A stretch of 64,000 bases of DNA from IMG/VR virus record IMGVR_UViG_3300045988_183727; one strand, 5' to 3'. The notes under the pieces are model-generated. The model ran no database searches, was not told where the DNA came from, and saw nothing but the letters and a program-made list of their open reading frames with translations. Shown here one piece after another: positions 6,017-59,937 of the stretch; the first letter of the stretch is position 1, and the number at the start of each line of letters is the position of its first letter. Source of the DNA: a virus. The translations under genes and the position numbers were made by a program.

Positions 6017-6125
6017 ACTCTTTATCGCGGATGACTTTTGGGATAAAAAAGTTTTCGCAAAACACGCTGGTTTTCCGACTTCTCACATGGTAGAATAATT
6101 AAAAACAAAGAAGAGGAGTTTTCAA

Positions 6126-7637
6126 ATGCCGATGGATGCCGATTACGCGCTCTTGAAAAAGTGGAGCAACTGGTTCGACCGGAAAAACGGCAGCGGTTAT
6201 GGGCCAGCAAACATATTGCAGCGGAGAACAATGAACACTGCAATCGTAACTGTGAGTACACTGCAAAATATTCCTTTTACTGAGTTATCTTCTTCGCTGT
6301 ACTTCTTTTGTAGTGATATAGATAGCAAGGAGTTCTCTCGTCTGTATGAGTCTCAGGTGGAGTTGGCCGGTGCCAACCCTGACAAGTTTATCAAGGGCCT
6401 TCACAGCTTTTTCAATTCCATGGCCAAGAGAATCAAGAACGAATCCGAATACGCCCTGTTCTTTGATTTTCTCATGGCTGCATCTCGCCTTCTTTTTACC
6501 GCAAAGGAAGAAAAACAATCTAACATCAACATTGATGTGGTGTACTGTTACTTCAGTATCCTCCTTCAGCAGACGGAATACCTGCGTCCCGATAAGTTCG
6601 ACTTAACCAAAGTCGTCTGCGGTTTGAAAACGACCGGCGAACTGTTGGTCATGGAAGATACCTACCCCTTCTTGGATAAGCCTGCTTTTGAGTTGGAGCG
6701 CCGGAATCTTGATGGAAAGGTTCGTTCCCCCATGGAGCTGGATGCTCAAATCAAGGAAATTTATAGCAAGTGGGGATATGGCTACATCCAAAATAAGGAG
6801 GATTTGGAGCGCTACACGCAGGTAGACAGGATTTTTTCCAACCAAATAGCGGGTATGGCTGCGCTCATCAATGAATACACCTTCGACATACTTCCACAGC
6901 ATTGCTTTTCTGCCATCGCAAATAAGTTCTTTTCCGTTGTTGCGCTGCCTCCGATGCTGCCTGATGAGATGCATGAGCTGCTGCGGACGAAACGAAGTTC
7001 AACGCTTCCTGCCAACGGCGCAGTGTTTGAGTTTACAAGCGACAAAGACATTATCCGGAAGGTCTTGCTCAAGGAAACTCTATACGGCGATTCCATCTAT
7101 ATGCTTTACCGTCTGGACACCTGTGAGGGAGACTTGAGCGGGTACTATGATACTAAGACAGGGTTCTTCTTTTCGGTTTTCCTCGATTCAGAGGACAGAG
7201 TCATCTACGGGAACATAAGGCGGCTCGTTTTAACTCTCTACGCCTGTGCCGTAACGCGCAAAGGCCCAAAACTGCTGTCGCAACTAAGCAGCCATGTCAA
7301 GTATCTGTCCCTCGACAATAAGGGCGTCCGGAAATTTGATGAGGTATCCATAAGCTACTACGGTCGCGGAGGACGCCTCAGGAACGCCTACGACGGCGCG
7401 GAAGCGGCAGGGAAGGATGGATACACCCGTAAGGGCGACGAAGCCTATGAGGAGGCTCCCAGAGCCATTCAGGGCTTTATCCGAAAGGTGGGCGAGGGGA
7501 GAACGCCGTCCCGTGAGGCGGTGGAGTACGCGGAGGCTCTTGGGTACTCCCTCGCGCCTGACGAAACCTATGTAAAGCCATTCATCCGTAGAGTTCTTCG
7601 CCTGAAGCAAAAGGAAGCTGAGAACACAAATGGATAA
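6126..7637 (+). CDS. hypothetical protein (503 aa)
   Basis: Long ORF with RBS gaagaggag. Followed by a bidirectional terminator. Confidence 0.6.
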   Translation: MPMDADYALLKKWSNWFDRKNGSGYGPANILQRRTMNTAIVTVSTLQNIPFTELSSSLYFFCSDIDSKEFSRLYESQVELAGANPDKFIKGLHSFFNSMAKRIKNESEYALFFDFLMAASRLLFTAKEEKQSNINIDVVYCYFSILLQQTEYLRPDKFDLTKVVCGLKTTGELLVMEDTYPFLDKPAFELERRNLDGKVRSPMELDAQIKEIYSKWGYGYIQNKEDLERYTQVDRIFSNQIAGMAALINEYTFDILPQHCFSAIANKFFSVVALPPMLPDEMHELLRTKRSSTLPANGAVFEFTSDKDIIRKVLLKETLYGDSIYMLYRLDTCEGDLSGYYDTKTGFFFSVFLDSEDRVIYGNIRRLVLTLYACAVTRKGPKLLSQLSSHVKYLSLDNKGVRKFDEVSISYYGRGGRLRNAYDGAEAAGKDGYTRKGDEAYEEAPRAIQGFIRKVGEGRTPSREAVEYAEALGYSLAPDETYVKPFIRRVLRLKQKEAENTNG

Positions 7638-8890: not shown

Positions 8891-11206
8891 TTGGGAGCTT
8901 TTAATGCCTGCTGTGAAAGGTCGTGTTTCCACATTAAACTAATACTGGCTGAAAAGAAACAGCTTGGCGATTTGATTGCCCAAGCTATTCCCGGTACAGC
9001 ACATTATGACCGTGGTGCAACCGTGAAAGGTGAATATGTAATCGTCTGTTCGCAAGGACATCTTCTTTCTCTGAAGGAGCCTGAGGACTATGATGTCGCG
9101 TTTGGAAAATGGGAGTTGTCTGCCTTGCCGATTTATTTTCCGAACTGGCAAACAAAGGTGAAAGAGTATAACGGGAGAGGCGTGAATCCCAACGAGCGCG
9201 TTTCGCGCATTGGGGAGCTTTTGAAGCAGTGTTCCTGTGTAATCCACGCAGGAGACCCTGATGAAGAGGGGCAGCTTCTTATTGACGAGCTGCTTCGCTG
9301 GCACGGTTATCGTGGACCCGTTTACCGTTTGGCGACGGGCGACACCTCTATCCCTGCGCTGCAGCGTGCGCTCAATAACCTCAAGGACAACCGTCTCTTT
9401 GAGAACATGGGGTGGTCTGCTTACGCACGGAGCGTTGCCGACCTTATGGTTGGTGTGAATATGAGCCGATATTATTCGCTGGTCAACAATGCTTCGCTGA
9501 CAGTTGGACGTGTGCAGTCTCCTACTCTTGGGCTTGTGGTCGAGCGTGATATGCTTATCGAAAACCACGTAAAAACTAAATACTATGAGGTCTCAGCGAA
9601 GACTTCTATTGAGGGTAAGGTCGTTGAGACGAAGTACAGGCCGAAGAAAGATGACCCGCATCTGACTGATGGGCTTATCTTGGATAGACCTTACGCGGAG
9701 AGCAAGTCTGTGATGATTTCCGGAAAACAGTTCTCAGGGGCTGCCGTTACAAAAAAGATTTCCAAAGAACAACCGCCTTTGCCGTTTGATATGCTGGAAT
9801 TGCAGGGCTACTGTTTGAAGAGTTTCGGCTACAAGCTGGACGACACCATGGAAATCACGCAGTCTTTACGCGATAACTACAACGCCATTACATATAACCG
9901 TACTCAGGTGCGATATCTCCCCGAAAACTACTTTGCGGAAGCTCCTGCCACCTCCCGTACTGTTATCGCAAACATAAACACGGTAGGAAAGGGAAATTTC
10001 AACCCTATTCTTGGTATGGACTTCAAGACGAAGGGGCGGTGCTTCGACGATTCTAAAATTGAAGCGCATTTTGGTATCATTCCTCAAAATGTGAGTCTCG
10101 ACCTCAACAAGATGACGGAGCGGGAACGAAACGTATATCTTGCCATTTGTAAGTATTATCTTATCCAGTTCTTTCCGCCCGCTGAGAAGGAAACAACAAA
10201 GCTGGTTGTCCCGCTGCCGGACGGCGCCACTTTAGAGGCGTCCAGCACTGGTGTGCTGAAACCCGGTTATCTCGTGATGATGCGCGAAGGTGTAGATACG
10301 CCCACAGCGTTGAGTATGATACCCGCCGGCAGTTACGGTGCTTTTGTTTCCGACGCTCAGGTCTTAGAGAAGGAAACAAATCCCCCTCCTCGTTACACAC
10401 AGTACACACTGGCGAAGGATATGAGCCGTATTGCCAAGTATGTTACCGACCCATTCATCAAGAGCACTCTGCTGAAGAAAGATGCCGACGTGGAAGAGAA
10501 TAACGGGGCTATCGGCACCAGCGCAACACGGGACCAGATAATCTCCGGTCTCATTTCAAGAGGGTTCTTGCAGGAAAAGGGGAAGTCCCTTATTTCCACT
10601 CCACTTGGACGCGAGTTGTATCGCATTCTCCCCGATTCCCTTCGTGGACCGGACCTCACCGCCTTGTGGTGGGTCATTCAAGAGGAGATACATGAGGGGA
10701 AGGCGACGCCGGAGAAGCTGGAACAAAACGTTCTGGCTATGCTCAAAGATTTCCTGCAGCAACCGCATCCTAAAGTGGACCCCAACATTGTCCCGACAAG
10801 GAAGGGATTCACGCCGATAGGAGTCTGTCCTCGCTGTGGTGGGAACATCATAGAGGGGAAAATGGGCTTTGGTTGTTCCAACTGGAAGAGTGGATGTAAG
10901 TTTACCATCTGGAAAAAGCCAAAACCGACTCTGTTCCAGCACATCACATTCACAGAGAAGGATGTCAAAAACTTTCTCGCTGGAAAGCCTGTCCATAAGA
11001 CGAAGCTGACCAAGAAGGACGGCGGTACATTTGCGGCAGACCTTGTGATGGATGACAGTCAGCGCAGTGATTGGGGCCCGAACTTTACGCTTCAGTTCAA
11101 CAGCACCAAACCCGCAGGAGCCTCCTCGCGCTCTGGTGGTGGTCGTTCCGGTAGTCGCAGTACGTCGCGTGGTTCTTCGCGGAGTCGGCGCTCTGGACGT
11201 CGGTGA
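8891..11206 (+). CDS. topB: DNA topoisomerase III (type IA)
   Basis: N-terminal KLILAEK motif, TOPRIM motif DPDEEGQ, GRVQSPTL motif, C-terminal zinc ribbon CPRCGG...C..C, and an Arg/Ser-rich tail. The start is uncertain: TTG at 8891 in the ORF track, and there is no in-frame ATG before the conserved N-terminus. Confidence 0.85.
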   Translation: MGAFNACCERSCFHIKLILAEKKQLGDLIAQAIPGTAHYDRGATVKGEYVIVCSQGHLLSLKEPEDYDVAFGKWELSALPIYFPNWQTKVKEYNGRGVNPNERVSRIGELLKQCSCVIHAGDPDEEGQLLIDELLRWHGYRGPVYRLATGDTSIPALQRALNNLKDNRLFENMGWSAYARSVADLMVGVNMSRYYSLVNNASLTVGRVQSPTLGLVVERDMLIENHVKTKYYEVSAKTSIEGKVVETKYRPKKDDPHLTDGLILDRPYAESKSVMISGKQFSGAAVTKKISKEQPPLPFDMLELQGYCLKSFGYKLDDTMEITQSLRDNYNAITYNRTQVRYLPENYFAEAPATSRTVIANINTVGKGNFNPILGMDFKTKGRCFDDSKIEAHFGIIPQNVSLDLNKMTERERNVYLAICKYYLIQFFPPAEKETTKLVVPLPDGATLEASSTGVLKPGYLVMMREGVDTPTALSMIPAGSYGAFVSDAQVLEKETNPPPRYTQYTLAKDMSRIAKYVTDPFIKSTLLKKDADVEENNGAIGTSATRDQIISGLISRGFLQEKGKSLISTPLGRELYRILPDSLRGPDLTALWWVIQEEIHEGKATPEKLEQNVLAMLKDFLQQPHPKVDPNIVPTRKGFTPIGVCPRCGGNIIEGKMGFGCSNWKSGCKFTIWKKPKPTLFQHITFTEKDVKNFLAGKPVHKTKLTKKDGGTFAADLVMDDSQRSDWGPNFTLQFNSTKPAGASSRSGGGRSGSRSTSRGSSRSRRSGRR

Positions 11207-19629: not shown

Positions 19630-19717
19630 GGAGAGGTGGCCGAGTGGTTGAAGGCACCGGTCTTGAAAACCGGCGATGCGAAAGCATCCGTGGGTTTGAA
19701 TCCCACTCTCTCCGCCA
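19630..19717 (+). tRNA. tRNA-Ser(TGA), long variable arm, CCA encoded
   Basis: ggagaggtggccgagtggttgaaggc D-arm, anticodon loop cttgaaa, extra arm, T-arm gtgggtttgaatcccac, acceptor 3' strand tctctcc followed by g then cca. Confidence 0.85.
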
Positions 19718-19728
19718 AAAAAAAACAA

Positions 19729-20053
19729 GTACGGACGGTATAACCGGAATTAACGCCTGTGGAGATGCATGGTCGTCGCGGAAGCAGGAATACTCTGTTG
19801 GCTGGCAATCACGTGAGAGGTGACGACCAGCACCTTGGGGGAACTGAATACCTGTGCTGGGTATACACCACCCAGAAATAGCAGGGTACTATACCACAAG
19901 ATGCCGCACGTTGAATTTGAGTGGCGGTATACACCACCCAGAAAAAAACAGGGTACTATACCATCTCATTGCACACTGGCATATACCCGTTATCGTAAAG
20001 GATATGTCACGGTTAGGGGTATACACCACCCCGAAATAACAGGGTTGTATACC
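19729..20053 (+). repeat. R1: ~130-nt conserved structured core plus 3 degenerate 36-nt GTATAC units; abuts the tRNA-Ser 3' end
   Basis: The core gtacggacggtataaccggaattaacgcctgtggagatgcatggtcgtcg...cctgtgctgg recurs at 20125, 50345, 51812 and 53259. Confidence 0.6.
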
Positions 20054-20098: not shown

Positions 20099-20250
20099 GT
20101 GTGCAATGATTGCACACTTAAAGACGTACGGATGGTACAGCCGGAATTTACGCCTGTGGAGACGAACTCCGTCGTAGAAGCAGGAACTTCCCATGGCTGA
20201 ACACCGCGTGAGAGGCGGTACAGCACCGAGGTGAGAGCACCTTGGGGAAC
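20099..20250 (+). repeat. R2: 19-nt perfect palindrome gtgtgcaatgattgcacac plus a diverged core copy
   Basis: The same palindrome precedes R3 at 50304. The core diverges after ggggaac. Confidence 0.5.
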
Positions 20251-20280
20251 AGCTTGAGTATCAAAATCGGTGGAAGGGCG

Positions 20281-48107: not shown

Positions 48108-48484
48108 ATTACACTCATAAGCACAATAAAGTCAGCTCCCTGAGGGAAGTGTGCGGGAGTTGCTTCGACTTTCGCGTTGTTCTCCATGCGGGGAGGTTCT
48201 GGCGGTTCGAGTCCGCACGACGCGCCTTCTGTTTTCGCTGCTTCTATCTTCACCTCCGTCTTTTTAACGAGCAGCGGACACAGAAACATCTCTCAATATG
48301 ATAGCGTAGCATAACTGGTAATGCCGTACCTCTCTCACAGGTAACGATATGTTGGTTCAACTCCAGCCGCTATTGCCAGCCGGCGTTCTACCCACCCCGC
48401 CGACATCAACTCTCTTCGGCGCTGGCGGCCTCCGTGCAGACGGGATTACACGTGATAAGCGGAGGCTGCCAGCACCACCAAAAT

Positions 48485-48560
48485 GCTGGTGTAGCTCAGT
48501 AGGCAGAGCGGCGCACTCGTAACGCGCAGGTCGTGGGTTCGACCCCCACCGTCAGCTCCA
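48485..48560 (+). tRNA. tRNA-Thr(CGT), CCA encoded
   Basis: Cloverleaf with anticodon loop ctCGTaa and T-loop ttcgacc. Confidence 0.85.
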
Positions 48561-48652
48561 TTCCATACTCATTCTCCTTCAAGTGAAGCCCCCGTGTAAC
48601 AGGTCTTTTGAAAAGTGCTTTCAGCCTCGTTGTGCGGGGGCTTCACGACTAT

Positions 48653-48728
48653 GCTGATGTAGCTCAGTTGGCAGAGCGGCGGATTTGTAAACCGCAGGTC
48701 GGGGGTTCAAGGCCCTCCATCAGCTCCA
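48653..48728 (+). tRNA. tRNA-Thr(TGT), CCA encoded
   Basis: Cloverleaf with anticodon loop ttTGTaa and T-loop ttcaagg. Confidence 0.85.
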
Positions 48729-48763
48729 TTAAAACCATGTGCTTTTGTGGTGTTTTTATATGC

Positions 48764-48840
48764 GCGGATGTCGTCTAATTTGGTGAGACACCAGCCTTCC
48801 AAGCTGGTCATTGCGGGTTCGAGTCCCGTCGTCCGCTCCA
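48764..48840 (+). tRNA. tRNA-Gly(TCC), CCA encoded
   Basis: Perfect anticodon stem ccagc/gctgg, loop ctTCCaa, T-loop ttcgagt. Confidence 0.85.
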
Positions 48841-48841
48841 A

Positions 48842-48867
48842 GGACACCGTAAAGTGTGTCCTTTTTT
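48842..48867 (+). terminator. terminator after the tRNA cluster
   Basis: ggacac cgtaaagt gtgtcc tttttt. Confidence 0.55.
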
Positions 48868-49229
48868 CTTTATCTGCTTATTTGTCCTGTGTTTTTCGGA
48901 CAACATCGGTGAGCGCAAAAGTCGCCTGAAGCGTGAGAAGCGAGCTGCCTGCATCTGTTTTGCGGGCGGTGGCGTGATAAGGGTGAAACTCTGCGCTTTC
49001 AGTAGCCGTAAGCAGGTGAGCAAAAGTCTCTGCGAACGCCTGCATGGTTCGCGGGACAAGGGAAGCCGGAAAAATAAGTAAACGCGGGCCGAGCGCAGAG
49101 GTTGTTGGCGTATTCCAGACGTGGGTGCTGCCTTTTATGCTGTGCTTGTTTGCGTGGGGTCCGGTGTTCTCGCAGTCTGGATGGTTGCTGCGAGAGGTGC
49201 CAAAACTTATTGCGAAAGGACGGAGTTCT

Positions 49230-50288
49230 ATGCCAACTACATTTCAAGCGTTTAAGTATCGCATTTACCCGACTGATGAGCAGGTCGAAATCATTGAAAA
49301 GACTTTCAAGTGCTGCCGGTTTGTGTGGAACCATTTCCTTGAGCGAACCTCCAAAATCTATGACCGTCGGCAGGAAAAGATGACGACCTTCGACTGTATG
49401 AAGGTTCTCACGGAGATGCGGGAGCGCTGGCCTTGGCTTGCGGACTGCGGCTGTACGGCAGAGAGATATGCCATCATTGATTTGTTTGAGGCGCGAAAGG
49501 CGTTCTTCCGCCGCATTAAAGCGGGGGAGAAGCCCGGTTATCCCAAATTTAAGGGCGCGTCCCATCCGACACAGAGTTTTACGACCGCTGGTACTATCTA
49601 TGTGACGGACGATTACATTCAGGTTCCGTTTGGAGGACAGTATCAGAAAATCAACAAGCTCAGGCGAGGGACGGGGCGCCCCATCGAAGGGTCTCCCCGC
49701 GAGGTCACTATTTCTCGGTCTGCTACCGGAAAATACTGGGCATCTGTCTGCTGTAAAGTAGAGCGAGACACGCTGCCTATTGTGGACGGCGAGGTGGGAA
49801 TCAGTCTCGGCCTGAAGGAGTTGGCTATTGACAGCAACGGCGTTCACTATGAGAACCCGAAGCATCTGAGCAAGTCTGCAAAGCGGTTGGCACGTGAGCA
49901 GCGGCGTCTATCCCGCAAGAAGAAGGGCTCTGTCAACTACGAGAAGCAGCGGCGCAAGGTAGCCGGCGTCCATGAGCATATTGCCAATCAGCGCAATGAC
50001 TACCGGCATAAAATCAGCCGTGAACTTGTCAACGCAAACCAGCTTATTGCCGTTGAGAAGGTGGCCGTTAAGCCCTTAGTTGAGGGCAATGAGCAGGCTA
50101 AAAGCATCCTCGATGCCGGCTGGTCTGAACTTACCGGTATGATAAAGTATAAGGCGGACTGGGCTGGACGCACTCTGGTGGACGTAGATACCGCCACCGT
50201 AGCACCGGAAGCCAAGCATGATGAGGCACTGGCACAGGTCGTGCTGTCCGAAGGTCAGCGCATGGCTTCCGAGCAGAAGCCTGCCTAA
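49230..50288 (+). CDS. TnpB-like (IS605 OrfB family) protein, probably nuclease-dead and C-terminally truncated
   Basis: N-terminal FKYRIYPTDEQ. RuvC-I reads GISLGLKELAIDSNG, so Ser replaces the catalytic Asp. RuvC-II IAVEKV. ILDAGWSELTGMIKYKADWAGRTLVDVD. There is no zinc finger or RuvC-III; an unrelated 30-aa tail follows. Confidence 0.75.
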   Translation: MPTTFQAFKYRIYPTDEQVEIIEKTFKCCRFVWNHFLERTSKIYDRRQEKMTTFDCMKVLTEMRERWPWLADCGCTAERYAIIDLFEARKAFFRRIKAGEKPGYPKFKGASHPTQSFTTAGTIYVTDDYIQVPFGGQYQKINKLRRGTGRPIEGSPREVTISRSATGKYWASVCCKVERDTLPIVDGEVGISLGLKELAIDSNGVHYENPKHLSKSAKRLAREQRRLSRKKKGSVNYEKQRRKVAGVHEHIANQRNDYRHKISRELVNANQLIAVEKVAVKPLVEGNEQAKSILDAGWSELTGMIKYKADWAGRTLVDVDTATVAPEAKHDEALAQVVLSEGQRMASEQKPA

Positions 50289-50303
50289 AGCCGAGCGAGG
50301 AAA

Positions 50304-50563
50304 GTGTGCAATGATTGCACACATTGCCAAGGAAATAAAAACGAGTACGGACGGTATAGCCGGAATTAACGCCTGTGGAGATGCATGGTCGTCGTGGAAG
50401 CAGGAATACTCTGTTGGCTGGTAGTCACGTGAGAGGTGGCACCAGCGCTTTGGGGAACTGAATACCTGTGCTGGGTATACACCACCCGGAAATAACAGGG
50501 TTGTATACCAATTCATGGCGTCTCCTTTTGGTATACACCACCCGGAAATAACAGGGTTTTACC
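50304..50563 (+). repeat. R3: palindrome gtgtgcaatgattgcacac + ~130-nt core + 2 GTATAC units, directly downstream of the TnpB-like gene
   Basis: Palindrome 50304-50322; core 50345-50474. Confidence 0.6.
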
Positions 50564-50663
50564 ATTCGTAATTATAGTTCTTCCCTCCGCTGTGTGGAGC
50601 GTTTTGTCGAAATGACAAAACATTCCTCTTAAATTCTTAAAAACAAGAAAGGAAATAAAGAAT

Positions 50664-51242
50664 ATGGAACCTTCTATCAACAGAACTCTCACCGTCAGCG
50701 TCGTCAGCTATGGCGTCGTATCTGTCGTCAATGGAGTCATCAACGTTGACAACCAGAACCCCATCGAGTTTCCCGCCGTGCTGGACGAGGCATCCGCTGC
50801 CAAGCTGCTGAAGAGCAGATACGGCGGCAAGCTGTTCCCCGTGGATGCAAATATCGTCGTGTCTTCCATCCGGCATGAGAAGTGGAAGTTCTCTATGGAC
50901 CTGAGCCAGTTCGTCGCTACCGCTGCCCGCAGCCGTGTGGACGGCACCGCATCCGAGGCCGACGATGCCCCCGCAGAGGACATCCCCGCCACTGAACCTG
51001 CTGTTCCCGCGCCTGAGACGACTCCCGCTGCTTCTCCTACTATCCCCATGCCTCTGGTCTCTGAGCCTGAGGAGGATTTTGCGCCTGCTACTCCCGAAGC
51101 GCCTGCTCCCACCGGTGGTTTCGCTCCTGAGACTCCCACTCCTGCACCTGATGCTCCCGCCAAGGAAGTTCCCTATGGTGGTAACTTCAATTTCCCCTCT
51201 GACTTCGGTGGCGACTTCGGTTCCGGCTTTTTCGGCGGTTAA
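50664..51242 (+). CDS. hypothetical Pro/Ala-rich protein
   Basis: ORF track; RBS aaggaaataaagaat. Confidence 0.5.
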   Translation: MEPSINRTLTVSVVSYGVVSVVNGVINVDNQNPIEFPAVLDEASAAKLLKSRYGGKLFPVDANIVVSSIRHEKWKFSMDLSQFVATAARSRVDGTASEADDAPAEDIPATEPAVPAPETTPAASPTIPMPLVSEPEEDFAPATPEAPAPTGGFAPETPTPAPDAPAKEVPYGGNFNFPSDFGGDFGSGFFGG

Positions 51243-51248
51243 TAACCG

Positions 51249-51416
51249 ATGGATGTCGTGAACGTTGGACGTGGATGCCTTGATTGCATCAATAAGGAAA
51301 CTCCGACGAATAAAGAACCCTGTAAGAGCTGTTCCCGCTGGAATAGGTGGGAACCTGACGAAAAGTGTAAGGAAAAGATGGCGGTCAAAGCCGCACGTGA
51401 AAGGACGAAGAAATGA
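51249..51416 (+). CDS. 55-aa zinc-finger mini-protein
   Basis: C..C...C..C motifs. The stop overlaps the next ATG (ATGA). Not in the ORF track. Confidence 0.35.
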   Translation: MDVVNVGRGCLDCINKETPTNKEPCKSCSRWNRWEPDEKCKEKMAVKAARERTKK

Positions 51417-51730
51417 GCAACACCAATACACCTGAAAAGCCCGTCGTCGTATTCATCAGTAATGACCACGATACCGTCATTGGTGTGATGGTCATTAAGA
51501 ACGACGATGAAAACCTGCAGAACAATCTCGAAATCATTGAGAAAAACTGGGTTGCTGCTCGTAACGAGTTGCTCCAGCGGGCTCGTGAGGACGATAGCAT
51601 TGAAGCAGACGAGGACGAGCTTCACATCGCATTCATCGCACACGAGTTGGGGATGTTCGACGAGCCCTATGAGACTATCGACATCTCCGGCGTTTACTCC
51701 GTCTCCAATGGGAATGTGGACCGCATCTAA
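51413..51730 (+). CDS. hypothetical acidic protein
   Basis: ORF track. Confidence 0.45.
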   Translation: MSNTNTPEKPVVVFISNDHDTVIGVMVIKNDDENLQNNLEIIEKNWVAARNELLQRAREDDSIEADEDELHIAFIAHELGMFDEPYETIDISGVYSVSNGNVDRI

Positions 51731-51753
51731 GTTGGTCTTGGCAGCAGACACAC

Positions 51754-51792
51754 AGCGGCGCAGGCCCTACTCCGGCGGCTGCGCCGCTTTTC
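51754..51792 (+). terminator. rho-independent terminator
   Basis: agcggcgcag ... ctgcgccgct tttt. Confidence 0.5.
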
Positions 51793-51811
51793 GCTAAATA
51801 CCTAAAAGCAA

Positions 51812-52155
51812 GTACGGACGGTATAACCGGAATTAACGCCTGTGGAGATGCATGGTCATCGTGGAAGCAGGAATGCTCTGTTAGCTGGTTTTCATGTGAG
51901 AGATGATGCCAGCAGCTAAGGGAACTGAATATGCCTGTGTTGGGTGTATGAGGCCCTGAAATGACAGGGGTGTATACCATATAATCTGTCGCTTGAGGAG
52001 ACAGGCGTATAGAGCCCAGAAATAACAGGGTTGTATACCCCTTAACCGCGCTCCAACTTTCAATCCTAAGGTGTATAAGGGCCTGAAATAACGGGGTGAT
52101 ACCTCAGTTATTCCTTTTAGGTACATAACGGGCTAAAACAACAGGGTAGTGTACC
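51812..52155 (+). repeat. R4: core + 4 GTATAC units
   Basis: The core carries compensatory substitutions in its terminal stem (ccagca/tgttgg). Confidence 0.6.
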
Positions 52156-52221
52156 AGATTATATATGATATGGGTGTAGGTATTCGTTTAGGACAACTTG
52201 AAGTTGAAAGGAGGTCTCTGG

Positions 52222-52743
52222 ATGGCCTCAAAAAAGATATATAGTTCCCCTGAACTCTATGAGGACAAGTTGGTGCGCGTAATGGCGCGGCTTGGTATCG
52301 AAGAAGGCGACTACAACTACGACTGGAGTCGTCAGGAGTGTTGGGTTGAGTTCAGGTACAAGGGTGAGCTTTACCGCTTCTCCCATAGCGTGAAGAACGC
52401 CCAAGAGCACGGCATCTCCCTGCAGTACGGCTCCGATGCCTTCGCACAGGTCGTGCTTTCTTTGGAAGACCTCGCCCGTATGGTCGAACGTGGCATCTAC
52501 GACCTGTCCACATGGGTGGCCGGAATGAGAGCTCTGCCGGAGCGCTCAAAGTCCTTGGATGCCTGTTTCATTGCTCTCGGCTTTGTAGAGCCGCCCACAT
52601 CCAAAGAAGAAATCACACTCCACTACCGCCGGTTGGCGAAGGTGTATCACCCTGATGCCGGTGGCGATAGCTCCTCATTTGATGCGCTGTCTAACAACTA
52701 TGCGAAATGTATGGAGATTTTCGAGGAGGTTGCCAACAAATAA
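52222..52743 (+). CDS. J-domain (DnaJ-like) protein
   Basis: HPD motif in LAKVYHPDAGGD; RBS gaaaggagg. Confidence 0.65.
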   Translation: MASKKIYSSPELYEDKLVRVMARLGIEEGDYNYDWSRQECWVEFRYKGELYRFSHSVKNAQEHGISLQYGSDAFAQVVLSLEDLARMVERGIYDLSTWVAGMRALPERSKSLDACFIALGFVEPPTSKEEITLHYRRLAKVYHPDAGGDSSSFDALSNNYAKCMEIFEEVANK

Positions 52744-53252
52744 TGTATATGTCTCAGAAAGAGTTCAACGCTATGATGAAGAAAAACCCCCGCCTCCGTG
52801 TTCACGGTGCAAATAACAATACCCGCGAACATCGCTCCAAAGCGAATAAGGCGGCAAAATATAGAAATGTAAAGGTCTACGAGTATGCCGATGGGCTGGC
52901 TTTTTTCGGTAAGCCCCGCAATAATGGTGAAATCCCTATCGCTGTCTTTGACAGCAAGAAGGAGTACCACCGCTGGAAAGAGCTTCAGATTTTGGAGCGC
53001 GGCGGACATATCCACGACCTTCGCCGGCAGGTGCCTTTGACCATCATTACCGAGTTCGAGTATCGTGGTCAGAAGGTCTCCGGTATTACTTACAAAGCCG
53101 ACGCCGTCTATGTGCGCGACGGCAAGTGTGTGGTAGAGGACGTGAAGCCCTTCGATACCACAACGCAGAAGTATCGAACTACAAAGGATTTCAACCTCAA
53201 GTGGAAGCTGCTCAAGGCTGAATATCCTACTTGGTCTTTTGAAATCTATTAA
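52743..53252 (+). CDS. DUF1064-like phage protein
   Basis: FDSKKEYHRWKELQILERGG block; the start overlaps the upstream stop (TAATG). Confidence 0.55.
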   Translation: MYMSQKEFNAMMKKNPRLRVHGANNNTREHRSKANKAAKYRNVKVYEYADGLAFFGKPRNNGEIPIAVFDSKKEYHRWKELQILERGGHIHDLRRQVPLTIITEFEYRGQKVSGITYKADAVYVRDGKCVVEDVKPFDTTTQKYRTTKDFNLKWKLLKAEYPTWSFEIY

Positions 53253-53258
53253 AAACGA

Positions 53259-53533
53259 GTACGGATGGTATAACCGGAATTAACGCCTGTGGAGATGCAT
53301 GGTCGTCGTGGAAGCAGGAATACTCTGTTGGCTGGTAATCATGTGAGAGATGATACCGGCACCTTTGGGGAACTGAATATGCCTGTGTCGGGTATATAGA
53401 ACCCTGAAACGACAGGGTTGTGTATCACAGAATAACTGCGGCAGCGGCATATATGGCTCTGAAACAACAGGGTTGTATACCGCATAAAAAAGGCTATGGT
53501 GTGTAATACCCTGAAATAACAAGGTTGTGTACC
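53259..53533 (+). repeat. R5: core + 3 GTATAC units
   Basis: Terminal stem ccggca/tgtcgg, compensatory relative to R1. Confidence 0.6.
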
Positions 53534-53714
53534 CCATAACATATTGTTTCTGAAAGTGGTGGACGGCAAGTGGAAAATCTGAGCAACATCCGGTGGCGAG
53601 TTCATCTGTAAGACCTGCTACGGTGGAGGGAGCGGTATTTTCCTTGCCTACTTCGACCTCGTGCAGTGAGTGATTGCAGGGCTTTCGACGGTTCCGCAAA
53701 TTTGTTCGTTCCAA

Positions 53715-53797
53715 GAACTTGACAAAATATCGAATTATAGTAGTATAGAATTATAAGGAAGGACAGTCTAACACAGACTGTCCTTCCGCTTTTTTAT
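53715..53797 (+). promoter_or_regulatory. cassette E (plus strand): promoter + leader hairpin with U-run
   Basis: ttgaca 53719-53724; tagtagtatagaattataagga is shared with cassettes A-D; hairpin aggacagtct aacac agactgtcct followed by gctttttt. Confidence 0.45.
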
Positions 53798-53820
53798 GCT
53801 CAGAAAGGGGATGACAATTT

Positions 53821-54615
53821 TTGGGAAACACAAGCAAAAAGCACGTAAAATGGGGGATTTTCAAGACTGCACTTTTTACGTTCCTGTTCGTCGCAGTATC
53901 CGTTTTCTACTTTCTCTCCACCAACGTGACACTCGCACAGGCCGAAGAACGCTCGAACCACGAATCACCTCCTGCAGCAGAGGTTGCCGCCCAGATGGAC
54001 GACACCAAGCTGTCAGAAGAAGCGCAGCAAGATGTTTTGGTGCTGAAGGAAGGAATCCTCGACCCGCTTTCCGACATCACGGAAGCAGAGAACTCTGAAG
54101 ATGACCCCGACGCCGTGGAGGAAGTACAGGAAGTCGTTCCGACAGTCTGTTCCTACTGCGGCTCTGAGAACCATAGTTCCTCAATCTGTGCAAAGAGGTC
54201 TATCGCCAATGGTGCCTATGGGCGCTGGGTGATTCCGTCTGTTGGCTGTAATGTAGCGGCCTACTCGTGTAACTGGGATGCAGACCAATCCTATGTTCAG
54301 GAAATTACTGACAGTTCCGACAGTGCAGCTTTCTTGACTTGCGGCGGCGTTGGTGTTCTTGCGGACCACAATAACCAAGGTTTCTGTGGACTTTCCAATA
54401 TTTCTGTTGGCGCAAAAGCCTACATGGATTTTGGTGATGGTGCAACTTACTACGAGTGCTATCAGGTTGAATATGGACACAATACCGGCGAAAAGATGCT
54501 CGATGGAAATGGAAACATAATGAGCTACAGCAACTATTCTTCCGGCACCGTGATTTGCTACACCTGCCTTGACCACTGGACCAACATTTACATCACTTAC
54601 TGGACGCCGGTATAA
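53821..54615 (+). CDS. secreted/membrane-anchored sortase-fold-like protein, paralog 1
   Basis: TTG start after aaagggga. Signal/TM helix, an acidic linker, and a C-terminal domain with CSYCGS..H, IPSVG, ADHNNQGF and TVICYTC (a TLxTC-like motif). Confidence 0.5.
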   Translation: MGNTSKKHVKWGIFKTALFTFLFVAVSVFYFLSTNVTLAQAEERSNHESPPAAEVAAQMDDTKLSEEAQQDVLVLKEGILDPLSDITEAENSEDDPDAVEEVQEVVPTVCSYCGSENHSSSICAKRSIANGAYGRWVIPSVGCNVAAYSCNWDADQSYVQEITDSSDSAAFLTCGGVGVLADHNNQGFCGLSNISVGAKAYMDFGDGATYYECYQVEYGHNTGEKMLDGNGNIMSYSNYSSGTVICYTCLDHWTNIYITYWTPV

Positions 54616-54654: not shown

Positions 54655-55455
54655 GTGAAAACGAAATTCAAAATCCCTCGGTGGGCACTCTTCACCGTTA
54701 TCATTCTGTCCTTTATCGGTGGTCTCTTTGCCATCTCCATGCTGCCTGCTTTCGCATCACGTGAAAGCTCTCCGCCTTTGGCAGTAGCAGAAGCCGCGCA
54801 GAACGAGGAAAAGGACGCAAATTCTGATGCTCAGACTCCCGAAGCAAACGAGACATCCGATGAGCATGGAAGCACTGAAACTCCCGTAGAGGACGAGCCT
54901 CAGGCAGACGATGCTGTCGTCGTTGAAGTGACTCCCTCCGAAGAGCCTGTTCAGGAAACTCCAACCACCTGTTCCTACTGCGGCAGCGTAGAACACACCA
55001 AAGACTACTGTGCCGTCCGTGCCGTGGACAATGGCGCCATTGGACGGCTCCGGATTCCCTCTGTCGGTGTTGACGTGGCTGTTTACGACGTCACTTGGTA
55101 CTCTCTGCAGCACACCACCGAAGGCGATAACTACGCGCAGGCCGTTACAGATGCATGGGACAGCGCCGCACAAATCGTCTATCTCGGCCAGACCGTTATT
55201 GGCGACCATAATAATCAGGGCTTCTCCGCCATCAACAACTGTGCCGAGGGCACTTACTCCTACATCGACATAGGCGACTCTGTCCTGACCTATGTTTGTA
55301 CCGGCATCCAGCATGGTCGCAACCCCGGTGGCTATCTTACCGGAGCCGATGGCGATAGCATCTATACCTCTTACTTCAATCCCAATGGTCTGACGCTGTA
55401 TACCTGTCTCGACCACAACTTCAATGTTGCCCTTGTGACATTCCAGCCTGCTTAG
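54655..55455 (+). CDS. sortase-fold-like protein, paralog 2
   Basis: Same architecture; GDHNNQGF and TLYTC motifs. Confidence 0.55.
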   Translation: MKTKFKIPRWALFTVIILSFIGGLFAISMLPAFASRESSPPLAVAEAAQNEEKDANSDAQTPEANETSDEHGSTETPVEDEPQADDAVVVEVTPSEEPVQETPTTCSYCGSVEHTKDYCAVRAVDNGAIGRLRIPSVGVDVAVYDVTWYSLQHTTEGDNYAQAVTDAWDSAAQIVYLGQTVIGDHNNQGFSAINNCAEGTYSYIDIGDSVLTYVCTGIQHGRNPGGYLTGADGDSIYTSYFNPNGLTLYTCLDHNFNVALVTFQPA

Positions 55456-55489
55456 GCTATTTAAGATTTGATGTGGGAAACCCACAAAA

Positions 55490-55659
55490 AGTCTTATAGC
55501 CACAGCCACACCGACGTGTGTAAGTCTTCTCTCAGGTAGAGGCGACGGATGCACCTGCGGGTTTTCCCAGCTCGCAGCTCTGCCAAGCATACGCCGAGGT
55601 AAGGGAGACATTACCGCCTCCTCCGGAGGCGAGACACTACTGAAAGGAGATGAGCGCAC
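55490..55659 (+). ncRNA. putative IscB omegaRNA / HEARO RNA region
   Basis: 170-nt non-coding, GC-rich, hairpin-dense sequence between the left inverted repeat and the iscB start. Confidence 0.45.
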
Positions 55660-57144
55660 ATGACGATGGTCTATGTGCAAAATAAAGACGGTAAACCTTT
55701 GATGCCGACAACTCGCTATTGTTATGTGCGCCTTCTCCTGAAGGAGAAGAAAGCACGAGTTGTTTGCACTACCCCGTTTACCATCCAGTTGAACTATGAT
55801 ACCCCAGACATCACCCAAGACTTGATTCTTGGCATCGACCCCGGCAGAACGAACATTGGTGTCGCTGTCGTCAAGGAGGACGGCCAATGCGTGTTCTCCG
55901 CACATCTGGAGACGCGCAATAAGGACGTACCTCTTCTGATGCAGAAGCGTGCCGGTTTCCGTAAGCAGCATCGCACGTTGGACCGGCGCCGCAAGCGCCA
56001 GCGTCGTGCGAAGGCTGCTGGGACCACCGTTGCCGGGGGTTCTGTCGAGAGATTGCTCCCCGGCTATGAGAAGCCCATTGTGTGCCACCATATCCGCAAT
56101 AAGGAGGCGCGGTTCAATAACCGTAGCCGCCCTGTGGGATGGTTGACACCTACAGCAAATCACCTGCTGCAAACCCACATCAACCTGATTGCAAAGGTTG
56201 CGAAGTTCTTACCTATCACGAAAGTGGTGGTGGAGCTGAACCGCTTTGCATTCATGGCGATGGATAATCCCAATATCCGTCGGTGGGAGTACCAGCAGGG
56301 GCCGTTGTACGGACTGGGTTCCGTGGAGGATGCGGTGTACGCACAGCAGGATGGACATTGCCTGTTCTGCAAGAAGCCCATTGACCATTACCATCATGTT
56401 GTTCCACGCCACAAGGGTGGAAGTGAGACGCTGGCTAACCGGTGTGGGCTTTGTGCGAAGCATCACGACCTCGTCCATAAGGACAAGGCGTGGGCGGATA
56501 AGCTGGTCACACGCAAGGAAGGTATGAATAAAAAGTACCACGCCTTGAGTGTTCTGAACCAGATTATCCCGCATCTCATGGAGTATCTCGGAGGCGAGAC
56601 TCTCTACGATGTCTATGCCACGGATGGTAAGTCCACCAAGGGCTTCCGCGTTGCCAAGAACGTGCCGAAAGAACATTACACGGATGCCTACTGTATCGCC
56701 TGTTCCATTTTGGATGCGAATACGAAGGTCTCCACACCTGCCGAACCCTTTAAGCTGAAGCAGTTCCGTCGGCACGACCGGCAATCCTGCATCCGCCAAA
56801 TGGTTGACCGGAAGTACCTTCTGGATGGCAAGGTCGTTGCAGCAAACCGGCATAAGGCCATTGAGCAAAAGTCCGATAGCCTGCAGGAGTTCCGTGAGGC
56901 TTACGGCGATGCTGCGGTATCGCAGCTCACCGTGAAACCTCACTCGCCCCAGTACAAGGACATGACTCGTATCATGCCGGGGGCGGTGATGGATTTCGGT
57001 GGCGCTGTCGGGATTCTTCAGGGGTCGGAAGGCTTCCATAACGGCAAGCCGGACTACTATAAATCTACGAAAGGAGAACGGGTTTTAACGAGGAGATGTG
57101 CGCTTCTCGCACAGAACGCAGGCATGGTTTTCATTCCCGCCTGA
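55660..57144 (+). CDS. iscB: IscB RNA-guided endonuclease (HNH + split RuvC), apparently intact
   Basis: PLMP motif (KPLMPTTRY), Ruv[11 protein letters not shown], Arg-rich bridge, HNH motifs (C..C...HH..N..C..C..H), RuvC-II VVVELN, RuvC-III HYTDAY. Confidence 0.85.
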
Positions 57145-57199: not shown

Positions 57200-57973
57200 A
57201 TGAAAACAAAGAAAATTTCCCGCCGCGCCGTTACGCTGGCTGCCTTTTTGCTGGTAAGTGCATCATCTTTACATATGGCTTGTGCAGAGGCTTCGGTGCC
57301 TTTCGATTACTTTACTGATGACCTCTCTGTGTCCACTGACGCCGTTGCGAAGGAAGATAAATACCGGCCTCCTGAGTGGTTCACAAAAGAAAATGTTGTA
57401 AGTGAAGTGGACTCAGACACGCCTCCGGGGGAGACTCCTACCCCTGCGGGCGAACCTTCTGTGGCGACCCCCGTGCCTGAGCCCGCACCGGAAACCGCAG
57501 CAGCCTGCAGCTATTGCGGCAGCGCAGGGCACTCGCAGAATAGGTGTGCCGTTTACGCTGTCGAACAGCGAGGTGCCGTTGGGCGTTGGTCTATCCCTTC
57601 TATTGGAATAGATGTCGCTTGCTTCACCTATGTGCTTGGAAGCGATTCCTTCGAGTACGGACAGGCAATTTGTGACGCTGCCGATAGTGCCGGCTACAGT
57701 GCGTATGGGAGCCAGTATCTCATTGCAGACCACAACTATCAGGGCTTTTCTGCCATAGCCAACTGCGCGGTCGGTGCGGTGGGATATATGGATTACGGAA
57801 ACAGTCGAACAGAATATGTTTGTACTGGGGTGGAGTATGGGCACAATGAAGGCACGGAACTGACTGATAATGACGGAAACGATGTTGCGTACAACAACAG
57901 TGGAGGAATTACCCTTTACACCTGTTACAACGGCTGGCAAAACGTCGTCATAGCGTATTTTACTCCGGTTTAA
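57200..57973 (+). CDS. sortase-fold-like protein, paralog 3
   Basis: ADHNYQGF and TLYTC motifs. Confidence 0.55.
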   Translation: MKTKKISRRAVTLAAFLLVSASSLHMACAEASVPFDYFTDDLSVSTDAVAKEDKYRPPEWFTKENVVSEVDSDTPPGETPTPAGEPSVATPVPEPAPETAAACSYCGSAGHSQNRCAVYAVEQRGAVGRWSIPSIGIDVACFTYVLGSDSFEYGQAICDAADSAGYSAYGSQYLIADHNYQGFSAIANCAVGAVGYMDYGNSRTEYVCTGVEYGHNEGTELTDNDGNDVAYNNSGGITLYTCYNGWQNVVIAYFTPV

Positions 57974-58359: not shown

Positions 58360-59937
58360 ATGCCTACAGAAAGAAAGAAGAAAACAACAAAAGAAGAAAA
58401 CGCAAAAAATAACTCAACAAAAAACACAATAAAAAAACCAAGAAACTCAACAAGTAACACGAAAAGCAAGAAAGAAAGCAAGTCTCTTTTGGGGTTAAAG
58501 GACCTGATGGAAGATACGTCTCCAGAAAAAGTCGTCGGCTGTTATGTTCGTGTATCTACCGATGCACAGGCGGAGCAGGGATATTCTATACCTGACCAAA
58601 CAGCCAAATTGCAGGCCTTTTGTACCGTAAAAGGCTGGGAGAACGCGAAATTCTACACGGACCCCGGATTCAGCGGCAGCAACTTAAATCGACCGGCAAT
58701 GCAGGAAATGATATCCGATGCGATGGAAGGGAAGCTGAAGGCGGTTGTCGTCTTCAAGCTGGACCGTCTCTCCAGAAGTCAGAAGGATACTCTTTATTTA
58801 ATTGAGGATGTGTTTCTTCCGAACGAAGTGGATTTTGTAAGCATTTCCGAGGCCCTTGACACTACCACTCCATATGGACGAGCGATGATAGGTATTTTGA
58901 GCGTCTTCGCCCAGTTGGAACGCGAGAATATCTATATGCGAACCCGTATTGGAATGATGGGTCGTGTAAGCGCGGGGTATTGGCGTGGCGGCGGAAACGT
59001 TCCGTTTGGCTATGATTATGACAAGACAAGCAAATCCCTTATCCCAAATGCTGACGCGCCAAAAGTGCCACAGGCTTACGACCTCTACATCAAGGGCTAT
59101 AGTTGCCAGAAAATTGCGGATATGCTCGGACTAAGTAGCGAACAGCTCGTGAGGAATATTCTCACCAAGCGCACATATTGCGGCTACATCAACTACAAAG
59201 GCAAAGACTACAAGGGTTTCCACGAGCCTTTGATTGATGAAGAGCGGTTCATGCTCGTGGCTGCAGAAATGGAACGCCGTGGGAAGGAAAACCTCGCAGT
59301 CTGCGGCAACAATAAATATTATCTTCTTACCGGGCTTGTTTTCTGCGGAGATTGTGGCGCCAGAATGCGGTACATGAAGTGGGGGAAGTATATCCGTATC
59401 GTCTGCTACTCGCACACGTGTAAAAAGAACATGGTTAAGGACCCCGATTGTCCAAACAAGGGCGTTCGCGCAGATGAACTTGAGAAGGTTGTTATCTCAA
59501 AACTTTTTGACATTGGTACTGACATTTCTCTCGACGATTTTGACGACACCCACGTGCCTGCAAGTGCAGCAGAAATCCTGACGAACCGGATAGATGAGCT
59601 GAAGGAGTCTCTCAGGCGCCTATATGGGCTCTATGCCGACATCGGAGACCCCATGGTGTACGAGCGCATTGAGGATGTGCGAGGACAGCTCCACGTATTG
59701 CAGAGACAGCTTGCAAGCGAGGAAACGCAGAAACTCAAGGAAGAGCACATCAACTACGTCCGTGAGAAAATTCAGACTATTGGAGACCTCTGGCCCCATC
59801 TTACTCCTATGGAGCGCCAAACTCTTGTTCGTGATTGTGTTGAGAAGGTTATTTTGCATCACAACGGACGTGTTGAGGTTTACTACACTTTCCATACTGA
59901 GAAAGATAGTAAAATTCTCAAAAGGAAAGGCGCATAA
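58360..59937 (+). CDS. large serine recombinase (phage integrase type)
   Basis: YVRVSTDAQ with the catalytic Ser, KLDRLSRS, a recombinase domain and a C-terminal zinc ribbon. The Lys-rich 49-aa N-terminal extension may not be translated; an alternative ATG lies at 58507. Confidence 0.8.
   Translation: MPTERKKKTTKEENAKNNSTKNTIKKPRNSTSNTKSKKESKSLLGLKDLMEDTSPEKVVGCYVRVSTDAQAEQGYSIPDQTAKLQAFCTVKGWENAKFYTDPGFSGSNLNRPAMQEMISDAMEGKLKAVVVFKLDRLSRSQKDTLYLIEDVFLPNEVDFVSISEALDTTTPYGRAMIGILSVFAQLERENIYMRTRIGMMGRVSAGYWRGGGNVPFGYDYDKTSKSLIPNADAPKVPQAYDLYIKGYSCQKIADMLGLSSEQLVRNILTKRTYCGYINYKGKDYKGFHEPLIDEERFMLVAAEMERRGKENLAVCGNNKYYLLTGLVFCGDCGARMRYMKWGKYIRIVCYSHTCKKNMVKDPDCPNKGVRADELEKVVISKLFDIGTDISLDDFDDTHVPASAAEILTNRIDELKESLRRLYGLYADIGDPMVYERIEDVRGQLHVLQRQLASEETQKLKEEHINYVREKIQTIGDLWPHLTPMERQTLVRDCVEKVILHHNGRVEVYYTFHTEKDSKILKRKGA

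Follow-up and report, generated by a model that had tools for sequence, protein, structure and literature searches.

A candidate minimal type V-like CRISPR system built around a probably nuclease-dead TnpB relative on a large mobile element

Introduction

Does a TnpB-like gene with an altered nuclease site, followed by structured RNA modules, belong to a decaying insertion sequence (IS), to a TldR-type repressor, or to something else? The question is raised by a gene at 49230..50288 (plus strand; 352 aa) in a 64-kb stretch of DNA from IMG/VR record IMGVR_UViG_3300045988_183727. Below, the whole of this stretch is called the window, all positions given without a locus name refer to it, and the gene is called the effector gene. 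A first-pass annotation had read the gene as a TldR-like exapted TnpB. We found that exaptation and probable loss of nuclease activity both stand, in view of the selection acting on the gene and the serine at position 192 (S192), but that its setting is multi-guide and array-based, with spacer matches in foreign integrase and excisionase (int/xis) genes. Because the arrays are variable, several modules occur per genome and spacers match other mobile elements, we favour a CRISPR-type system over a TldR. With a probability of about 0.6, the locus encodes a minimal type V-like CRISPR system that derives from TnpB, has probably lost the ability to cut DNA and is directed against rival integrative elements.

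Results

A TnpB-fold protein with an altered RuvC site

The effector gene was characterized by Pfam, NCBIfam and PDB sequence matches, alignment, an AlphaFold2 (AF2) fold and the ratio of nonsynonymous to synonymous substitution rates (dN/dS). Its product begins with MPTTFQAFKYRIYPTDEQ and matched the Pfam families OrfB_IS605 (3e-25) and HTH_OrfB_IS605 (1.6e-17), as well as the NCBIfam family of RNA-guided TnpBs, guided_TnpB (7e-75). A PDB sequence search aligned ISDra2 TnpB over residues 6-322 (1.9e-49). The same protein (8exa) was the top Foldseek match of the AF2 model (TM, the template modelling score, 0.83/0.86; E 8e-27), which itself had a predicted local distance difference test score (pLDDT) of 89.4 and a predicted TM score (pTM) of 0.80. 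The TnpB domain set, comprising the HTH_OrfB N-terminus, the OrfB_IS605/RuvC core and the fold, is present, and the closest relatives are TnpBs of ~370 aa with ~50% identity. The four kinds of match agree with the TnpB-like assignment made at first pass, and the 352-aa protein is a real TnpB-fold gene product.

The catalytic site departs from that of TnpB. In an alignment with ~60 relatives the RuvC-I motif reads VGISLG, placing S192 in a column of near-invariant Asp, just as the first-pass annotation had noticed. E276 (RuvC-II) and D331 are kept at the other catalytic columns, so that the triad reads S192/E276/D331. The D-E-D triad of TnpB is incomplete in all orthologues, each with Ser at RuvC-I. 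The zinc finger (CxxC...CxxC) is also gone, as had been predicted. Alignment with full-length relatives showed an in-frame internal deletion of ~28 aa, and the TNB/zinc-finger Pfam model was matched over its first 24 positions only, below the cut-off.

The open reading frame (ORF) ends 32 aa after the LVDVD block, close to the 30 or so first counted. The C-terminal truncation proposed from this distance was not borne out, since the loss is internal and the final 24 aa (KHDEALAQVVLSEGQRM...) can still be aligned to the RuvC-III helix DRDENAAKNILxEGLRM. The RuvC-III region, said to be missing, persists as a degenerate helix that keeps D331 in the catalytic column and has lost the NAAxN motif. 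We also considered a zinc finger and RuvC-III encoded in another frame downstream, as the strings 'VCNDC' and 'DGIAGINA' might suggest. This was rejected; the alignment indicates an in-frame deletion, and the strings belong to a palindrome and to the RNA module R3, both described below. Mutation of the RuvC-I Asp inactivates TnpB and Cas12, which are RuvC-fold nucleases. Because this Asp is known to be essential and the TNB module has been lost, loss of cleavage is predicted, and the 352-aa protein is probably nuclease-dead.

Purifying selection at a fixed position

Close homologues (350-352 aa, 87-100% identity) were found on 25 IMG/VR contigs of up to 191 kb, and further orthologues on 17 human-gut metagenome contigs. 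The exact protein is recorded on >400 contigs, the longest of 308,797 bp; no close orthologue was found in GTDB species-representative genomes. Every orthologue examined (25 viral, 17 metagenome) was intact, with GISLG and with no frameshift or stop. Between two clades, dN/dS was 0.07-0.09 at a dS of 1.0-1.2 (Nei-Gojobori), and the Ser at RuvC-I has been kept in both over a dS of ~1.

Gene order was constant as well, running from a RecG-like helicase through a cluster of tRNA-Glu, tRNA-Thr, tRNA-Thr and tRNA-Gly (48300-48840) to the effector gene. The gene is single-copy and always follows this tRNA cluster, no Y1 transposase (TnpA) gene lies near it, and the mobility hallmarks of TnpB are absent. 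Because dN/dS is low, all orthologues are intact and synteny is fixed, the pseudogene reading is contradicted. The decaying IS remnant that the first-pass annotation had offered as its alternative thus gives way to purifying selection, and the sequence comparisons support an exapted gene over a decaying IS copy.

That annotation had also held that an intact GIDLG tnpB at the same locus in a related genome would mark this copy as a broken IS. In locus L155, a 372-aa full-length TnpB with a TNB domain (5652-6770) lies between the RecG-like gene and the effector gene. The intact TnpB coexists beside the effector gene and has not replaced it, so that this condition for a broken IS does not hold.

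R3 is an omegaRNA-type scaffold

Downstream of the effector gene lies R3, a 129-nt module at 50336-50464 that is repeated at 51803, at 53250 and, directly after a tRNA-Ser, at 19721. A covariance model placed five copies in the window, starting at 19725, 20122, 50341, 51808 and 53255. Four of them lead arrays; the fifth is diverged and array-less. The first-pass annotation had placed R3 where an omegaRNA would be encoded, which the covariance model bears out, yet with five copies in the window R3 is not special to the 3' end of this gene. The copy next to the gene, R3a (50341..50474, plus strand; 155 bits), begins 53 nt from the 3' end of the gene, and its assignment draws on the covariance model, homology to tnpB 3' flanks and covariation. 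The diverged copy at 20122-20269 (81 bits) forms, with a palindrome at 20099-20117, a unit on the plus strand (20099..20269) and is directly upstream of an ORF starting near 20293.

Both within and between clades, R3 copies share 86-97% identity with the reference copy, while the synonymous sites of the gene are saturated. The sequence elements GCCTGTGGAG..GAAGCAGGAAT..GTGAGAG occur in R3 and also 3' of P0005, P0006 and P0010, the closest full-length TnpB genes, which are ~50% identical to the effector and likewise have phage-like or mobile-element surroundings. A covariance model based on 20 R3 copies only gave full-length, same-strand matches just 3' of tnpB genes in several loci (E 0.0025 in L044, 0.011 in L046, 0.037 in L004 and 0.09 in L008). 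L039 had two such sites (4e-6 and 0.0037), and L137 and L123 also had matches 3' of tnpB. In the alignment of covariance-model matches, which is fitted to the model, 93.9% of cells were paired compared with 36-46% for slid partners, and compensatory changes were present in 21 of the 36 pairs. At gathering thresholds, Rfam recognized nothing in the window but tRNAs and assigned R3 to none of its families. Because a model built solely from R3 matches the 3' flanks of tnpB genes, and because of the covariation, R3 is on sequence grounds an omegaRNA-type scaffold. A role as a tracrRNA with an anti-repeat was rejected, the R3:repeat duplex energy being no better than in shuffled controls.

In clade B, the interval from tRNA-Gly to the start codon of the effector gene contains R3-like remnants (L027 9893-9988, L030 9894-9988 and L028 4260-4308). 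None was detected between tRNA-Gly and the effector start in the window.

The 3' side of the gene also carries a perfect 19-nt palindrome, GTGTGCAATGATTGCACAC (50304..50322, either strand), which is the core of a 25-nt palindrome, is found in both clades and has a chance expectation of 0.02. Its perfection had been reported correctly, but it is an element-wide motif and not specific to this locus. The consensus AAAGTGTGCAAT[G/C]ATTGCACACTTT occurs 89 times in related loci, often 14-17 nt 5' of R3 but also elsewhere, and the second window copy is the one at 20099-20117. The palindrome is probably a putative protein-binding or operator site of some regulator and probably lies outside the guide RNA.

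R3 leads repeat-spacer arrays

The hairpins that follow R3 had been seen at first pass but not recognized for what they are. Comparing the same position across relatives, we found that they are 36-nt repeats (GGTATACACCACCCGGAAATAACAGGGTTGTATACC) alternating with unique spacers. The loci together contain 112 unique spacers, 64 of exactly 30 nt and 81 of 29-31 nt. R3 lies directly upstream of 187 of 193 arrays, and five more are cut by the end of the locus. A single TnpB/RuvC effector with arrays of unique, constant-size spacers, linked in all loci examined, corresponds to a type V-like system.

Spacers vary in number and identity between near-identical elements. At the position of array a, relatives range from zero to five or more spacers: there are no spacers in L036, one in the window, one in L034, two in L023 and five in L029; L022 and L024 have five each, the last two being short. 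Trailer-end spacers are common to relatives (for example AATGGCTCGTTCGGAATTT and CCGGATGGGACGCGAGTAAGCCTCTATG) and R3-proximal ones are unique, which argues for spacer gain at the R3-proximal (leader) end. Degeneration or truncation is seen in the older repeats and spacers.

The window contains four arrays, all on the plus strand. Array a (50474..50565) consists of a repeat (50474-50509), a 20-nt spacer (50510-50529, AATTCATGGCGTCTCCTTTT) and a degenerate terminal repeat (50530-50565). A terminator-like hairpin with a T-run follows tRNA-Gly (48840..48863, plus strand), and two terminator-like hairpins stand 3' of array a (50585..50621, plus strand). The effector gene, R3a and array a are likely to form one unit between these terminators, with the hairpin at 48840..48863 as the predicted upstream boundary. 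Array b and its scaffold (51808..52155; R3b 51808-51943) contain four diverged repeats and spacers of 25, 30 and 14 nt, with an extra 30-nt spacer in some relatives. Array c (53255..53533; R3c 53255-53391) has spacers of 19 and 16 nt between three diverged repeats. From one relative to another, arrays b and c are nearly constant. Array d belongs to a tRNA-Ser module (19630..20053; tRNA-Ser 19630-19717, R3d 19725-19860, array d 19860-20053). In both clades tRNA-Ser(TGA) is followed within 3-8 nt by R3 and an array (window 19630-19860; L078 2831-3050), an arrangement that suggests co-transcription of tRNA-Ser and R3d, with the scaffold 5' end matured by RNase Z/P.

In IMG/VR the 36-nt repeat occurs on contigs of this element family only, where a genome of 180-190 kb has five to eight or more sites apart from one another, and GenBank phages and PLSDB contained no 28-nt match to it. 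Its sequence is similar to the last ~37 nt of the omegaRNAs of L042 (shuffle p 0.005) and L046 (p 0.03). All repeat-carrying IMG/VR contigs are among the effector-gene matches except the 119-kb contig 3300045988_183715 (loci L058, L065 and L075), which carries R3-array modules and has no effector-gene match. There the gene may be missing, diverged or overlooked by the peptide patterns.

Spacer matches lie in genes of other gut elements

Four of the 112 spacers had matches, all in other gut viral, phage-like contigs. The window spacer at 19989-20017 (array d) matched 30/30 within the gene of a large serine recombinase (integrase). This protospacer is present in five contigs, namely GenBank MT839899.1 (human faeces) and four IMG/VR contigs with differing flanks. 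The other three spacers, from different arrays and genomes, matched MT835962.1 within 1.3 kb of its xis/int module. One matched 27/30 in the 5' region of an xis-like helix-turn-helix (HTH) gene, one 29/30 inside the same HTH gene, and one, whose mismatches fall on every third base, 23/30 in the tyrosine integrase gene next to it. All four are in sense orientation, and because the spacers carry sense-strand sequence a guide would pair with the template strand.

No self-target was found; within 1.6 Mb of related loci no spacer matched outside the arrays, and none had a promoter target there. PLSDB yielded no spacer match, and GenBank phages yielded none besides those in MT839899.1 and MT835962.1. 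Exact IMG/VR scans with three further spacers returned only the arrays themselves. A candidate match of spacer CTTCGTCAATGA... to L100 reached 18/30 only and was rejected.

The target contig MT835962.1 (L100) has its own stand-alone R3-like scaffold at 2823-2932 (covariance model E 1e-9), ~70 nt 5' of a protospacer. In addition, a 38-nt array 'spacer' in L116 (~5913) matches the MT835962.1 scaffold at 29/38. The likeness may reflect guide capture by recombination, or rivals with the same kind of system.

Related genes and the carrier element

Two other variants of the gene were seen in related loci. The 348-aa protein P0003 (L103 6001-7047) is identical to an active P0011-type TnpB over residues ~52-170 and otherwise corresponds to the effector, and its sequence looks like a recombinant of active and dead TnpB genes. 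A second dead clade, P0022/P0026 (L102 1387-2349), encodes 320 aa in which VTIRRDD replaces GIDxG and the C-terminus is absent. The P0026-type gene is followed at L102 2383-2514 by an R3-like scaffold (covariance model E 1.7e-7) and then a terminator-like hairpin, with no array; P0022 was not found in IMG/VR. Judged by its sequence, this clade is independent and its layout is TldR-like.

The window encodes a SpaA/TQ-ester pilin-like protein (1587 aa), two sortase-like genes, a topoisomerase, an SPFH protein and a MazF toxin. Cargo genes were noted at 37-4800, 8891-11206, 54655-55455, 57200-57973 and 58360-59937. The last is a large serine recombinase, ~8 kb downstream of the effector gene, that reads as the integrase of the element. 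Besides the RecG-like helicase next to the locus, the element encodes an Endonuclease_NS_2 protein. The 64-kb window had no match to capsid, portal or terminase, and PHROGs and Pfam searches of the large ORFs gave no decision between phage, plasmid and integrative and conjugative element. Megablast of 49000-54000 against GenBank phages and PLSDB returned no match, and the 'viral' label comes from IMG/VR alone. The cargo looks closer to that of a conjugative or integrative element than to that of a classical phage, and a human-gut Firmicute may harbour it as a large phage, as a phage-plasmid or as a conjugative element.

An intact IscB gene (55660-57144, plus strand; 494 aa) lies nearby and is very close to OgeuIscB (PDB 7xht, E 1e-196), with profile matches to RRXRR (2e-49) and NCBIfam guided_IscB. 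It is absent from most related loci and sits elsewhere in L154 (10428-11897), and so behaves as a mobile IS. Its upstream omegaRNA (HEARO), in the non-coding region ~55460-55650, received no Rfam call at the gathering threshold. IscB was rejected as the user of the arrays on account of this mobility, its absence from most related loci and its different site in L154.

Discussion

A proposed mechanism and what weighs against it

The homology, the selection, the structure and turnover of the arrays and the spacer matches are observed features of this locus. From them we infer a mechanism in which cleavage would be lost and DNA binding, silencing and the use of the arrays by the 352-aa protein would follow. 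The protein would keep the TnpB fold and its RNA-binding core, and binding of targets without cleavage would be expected from the Ser at RuvC-I and the absence of the zinc-finger/TNB module. Guides would come from modules of a ~136-nt omegaRNA-derived R3 followed by 36-nt hairpin repeats and ~30-nt spacers. One module would be expressed with the effector gene between terminators; the others would be scattered through the element, one of them probably co-transcribed with tRNA-Ser. By analogy with Cas12m, TldR and type IV systems (PMC11656645; 10.1101/2023.11.30.569447), the ribonucleoprotein would open double-stranded DNA into an R-loop, pair its guide with the template strand and block transcription. 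Competing integrative phages or elements would thereby have their integration and excision genes silenced.

Several observations weigh against this system. Few spacers have matches, and no consensus target-adjacent motif emerged from the 5' flanks of the four protospacers (GGCTACT/GGCTACC/GGGAACG, TGTATTG, AATTGCG and CTTTGGG). Arrays b and c may be inactive, as their repeats are degenerate and their spacers truncated. A distance of 1.8 kb separates the first array from the effector gene in L030-33, and for repeat-spacer units not fused to R3, complementarity to R3 did not exceed that of shuffled controls. PADLOC and Pfam, applied to 60 ORFs of the 64-kb window out of an element of 180-300 kb, detected no cas1, cas2 or cas4, which sits uneasily with acquisition of spacers at a precise 30 nt. 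The repeat scans covered IMG/VR, GenBank phages and PLSDB, and beyond them there may be a host Cas system with the same repeat. Finally, only one catalytic residue has changed, and because E276 and D331 remain, some residual activity is possible.

A more far-reaching view is that the locus is a living intermediate in the birth of a CRISPR system from a transposon guide RNA. The scaffold would serve as array leader and act in cis for the first guide, the repeats would be duplicated 3' ends of the scaffold, guides would be gained without Cas1-Cas2, and the many modules of the element, one of them processed by way of a tRNA, would jointly silence the integrase and excisionase genes of rivals. Guide gain might proceed by scaffold-mediated recombination or by 'guide capture' from rivals with related scaffolds, an idea in line with the scaffold of MT835962.1 ~70 nt from a protospacer and with the scaffold fragment in L116. 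Taken as a whole, we regard this view as tentative and rather doubtful.

Other explanations

The arrays could instead be used by a CRISPR-Cas system of the host, as hijacking mini-arrays or RNA anti-CRISPR decoys, with the TnpB-like protein in another role, for example regulation by RNA binding or RNA processing. Viruses are known to carry mini-arrays and single-repeat decoys made of host repeats (PMC11656645), spacer length is a precise 30 nt with no adaptation genes in the window, and the 36-nt/30-nt geometry is common in class 2 systems. That bacterial genomes lie outside the repeat scans also leaves room for such a host system. However, 187 of 193 arrays have an omegaRNA-type leader related to the scaffolds of the nearest TnpB relatives, and the repeat itself resembles the 3' end of an omegaRNA. 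The confinement of the repeat to this family in IMG/VR, with no 28-nt match in GenBank phages or PLSDB, speaks in the same direction. We consider use by a host system unlikely.

A TldR-type repressor would employ one fixed R3 guide against a particular promoter, either in the host or in the element, with the arrays as a mere by-product. The dead-type RuvC-I, the lost zinc finger, the 3' scaffold and carriage on a mobile element all recall fliC-TldRs (10.1101/2023.11.30.569447). The near-fixity of arrays b and c, the diverged, array-less R3 that abuts the 5' end of a gene and the array-less scaffold of the second dead clade (P0026, L102) fit this explanation too, and arrays b and c or the R3 at 20122 could act in a TldR-like manner. 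It does not account for the turnover of spacers among near-identical elements, for their set length of 30 nt or for the 5-8 or more modules per genome. Moreover, the matched spacers fall in foreign int/xis genes, no promoter was matched within the 1.6 Mb of related loci, and the locus lacks a conserved accessory gene of the fliC or oppF kind. A single-guide repressor is therefore quite unlikely as an account of the whole locus.

We judge it just as improbable that the effector is still a nuclease with an S-E-D site, or recruits a nuclease or helicase of the element, so that rival DNA is cut and not silenced. It is generally known that mutation of the RuvC-I Asp inactivates TnpB and Cas12, the zinc-finger/TNB module is lost, NAAxN is degraded, and the Ser is conserved in both clades over a dS of ~1. 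The retention of E276 and D331, the RecG-like helicase adjoining the locus and the Endonuclease_NS_2 protein would suit such an activity, and some rearranged RuvC sites may stay active (Altae-Tran et al., PMC10691335).

The idea that the gene is a decaying IS remnant or pseudogene, with R3 and the hairpins as dead transposon ends or debris resembling miniature inverted-repeat transposable elements, can point to the active TnpB and IscB insertion sequences that move in these elements and to the R3-like fragments upstream of the gene in clade B, but is hardly credible given the dN/dS of 0.07-0.09 with no frameshift or stop, the fixed synteny, R3 copies 86-97% identical despite saturated synonymous sites, the covariation in R3 and the regular spacer lengths.

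Significance

If the locus is the CRISPR-type system that we favour, its 352-aa effector would be among the smallest CRISPR-associated effectors known. It would document a very recent and legible transition from TnpB to CRISPR, in which the leader is still an omegaRNA scaffold and the repeats are still its 3' end. Two open questions would become testable, namely the origin of arrays from omegaRNAs and the acquisition of guides without Cas1-Cas2. RNA-guided silencing between elements, as by Cas12m and type IV systems, would extend to an abundant human-gut element (>400 contigs), and the apparent preference for integration and excision genes of rivals would be a new tactic of competition. A compact, naturally dead, programmable DNA binder with a multi-guide format would also be of practical interest.

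Comparison with known systems

A TldR has in essence a single guide of 9-16 nt, aimed at a host promoter, and comes with an accessory gene, fliC or oppF (Wiegand et al., 10.1101/2023.11.30.569447; Xiao et al. 2026, 10.64898/2026.09.22.753285). Like TldRs, the effector is a TnpB derivative under selection that lacks the zinc finger and whose RuvC site is probably inactivated; it does not move, resides on a mobile element or phage, has an omegaRNA-type scaffold 3' of its gene and presumably binds without cutting. It differs in that the loss is internal and not a C-terminal truncation, and in its several modules with turning-over arrays of ~30-nt spacers and foreign int/xis targets. No fliC- or oppF-like partner was found among the annotated neighbours. 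With neither a single guide nor a partner gene, the effector is outside the characterized TldR clades. A two-mutation screen (10.1101/2023.11.30.569447) would have missed it, because just one catalytic residue is changed.

Cas12m (type V-M) is a RuvC-inactivated effector found on plasmids and prophages without adaptation genes, where it blocks transcription of rivals (PMC11656645; PMC10691335). The locus described here shares with it a RuvC-inactivated type V-like effector, an array without adaptation genes and, as proposed above, silencing between elements. Unlike Cas12m (~600 aa), the effector has 352 aa, is ~50% identical to ordinary TnpBs and has a complete omegaRNA-like scaffold as leader. 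Cas12m was a distant fold match (Foldseek E 5e-9, 11% identity, TM 0.50-0.69), and the effector falls outside the Cas12m clade by sequence comparison.

Viral CRISPR mini-arrays and type IV plasmid systems are arrays on mobile elements directed against related or competing elements (PMC11656645). The present arrays likewise lie on a mobile element with no adaptation genes in the window and have competing-element targets. Mini-arrays, however, depend on host repeats and effectors, and type IV systems are multi-subunit, whereas this element apparently brings its own single-protein effector and scaffold.

The closest parallels are of another kind. TranCs are active nucleases that, like the V-U groups, represent TnpB lineages recently associated with CRISPR arrays, and as in these groups the array here lies downstream of the gene at the omegaRNA position, with repeats apparently derived from the omegaRNA 3' end. 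Unlike TranC, the effector is probably nuclease-dead. LaTranC matched it in sequence over residues 241-320 only (E 1e-11), with 19% identity in the fold alignment. V-U24 is reported to have a non-canonical RuvC-I site and an HTH-protein partner (Altae-Tran et al. 2023, PMC10691335). By that description the effector resembles V-U24 in its non-canonical RuvC-I site and CRISPR association, and differs in that no HTH-protein partner is among its annotated neighbours; the family may already be catalogued, though uncharacterized. Conceptually, the place of this locus is among the TnpB-to-Cas12 intermediates, together with TranC and the V-U groups.

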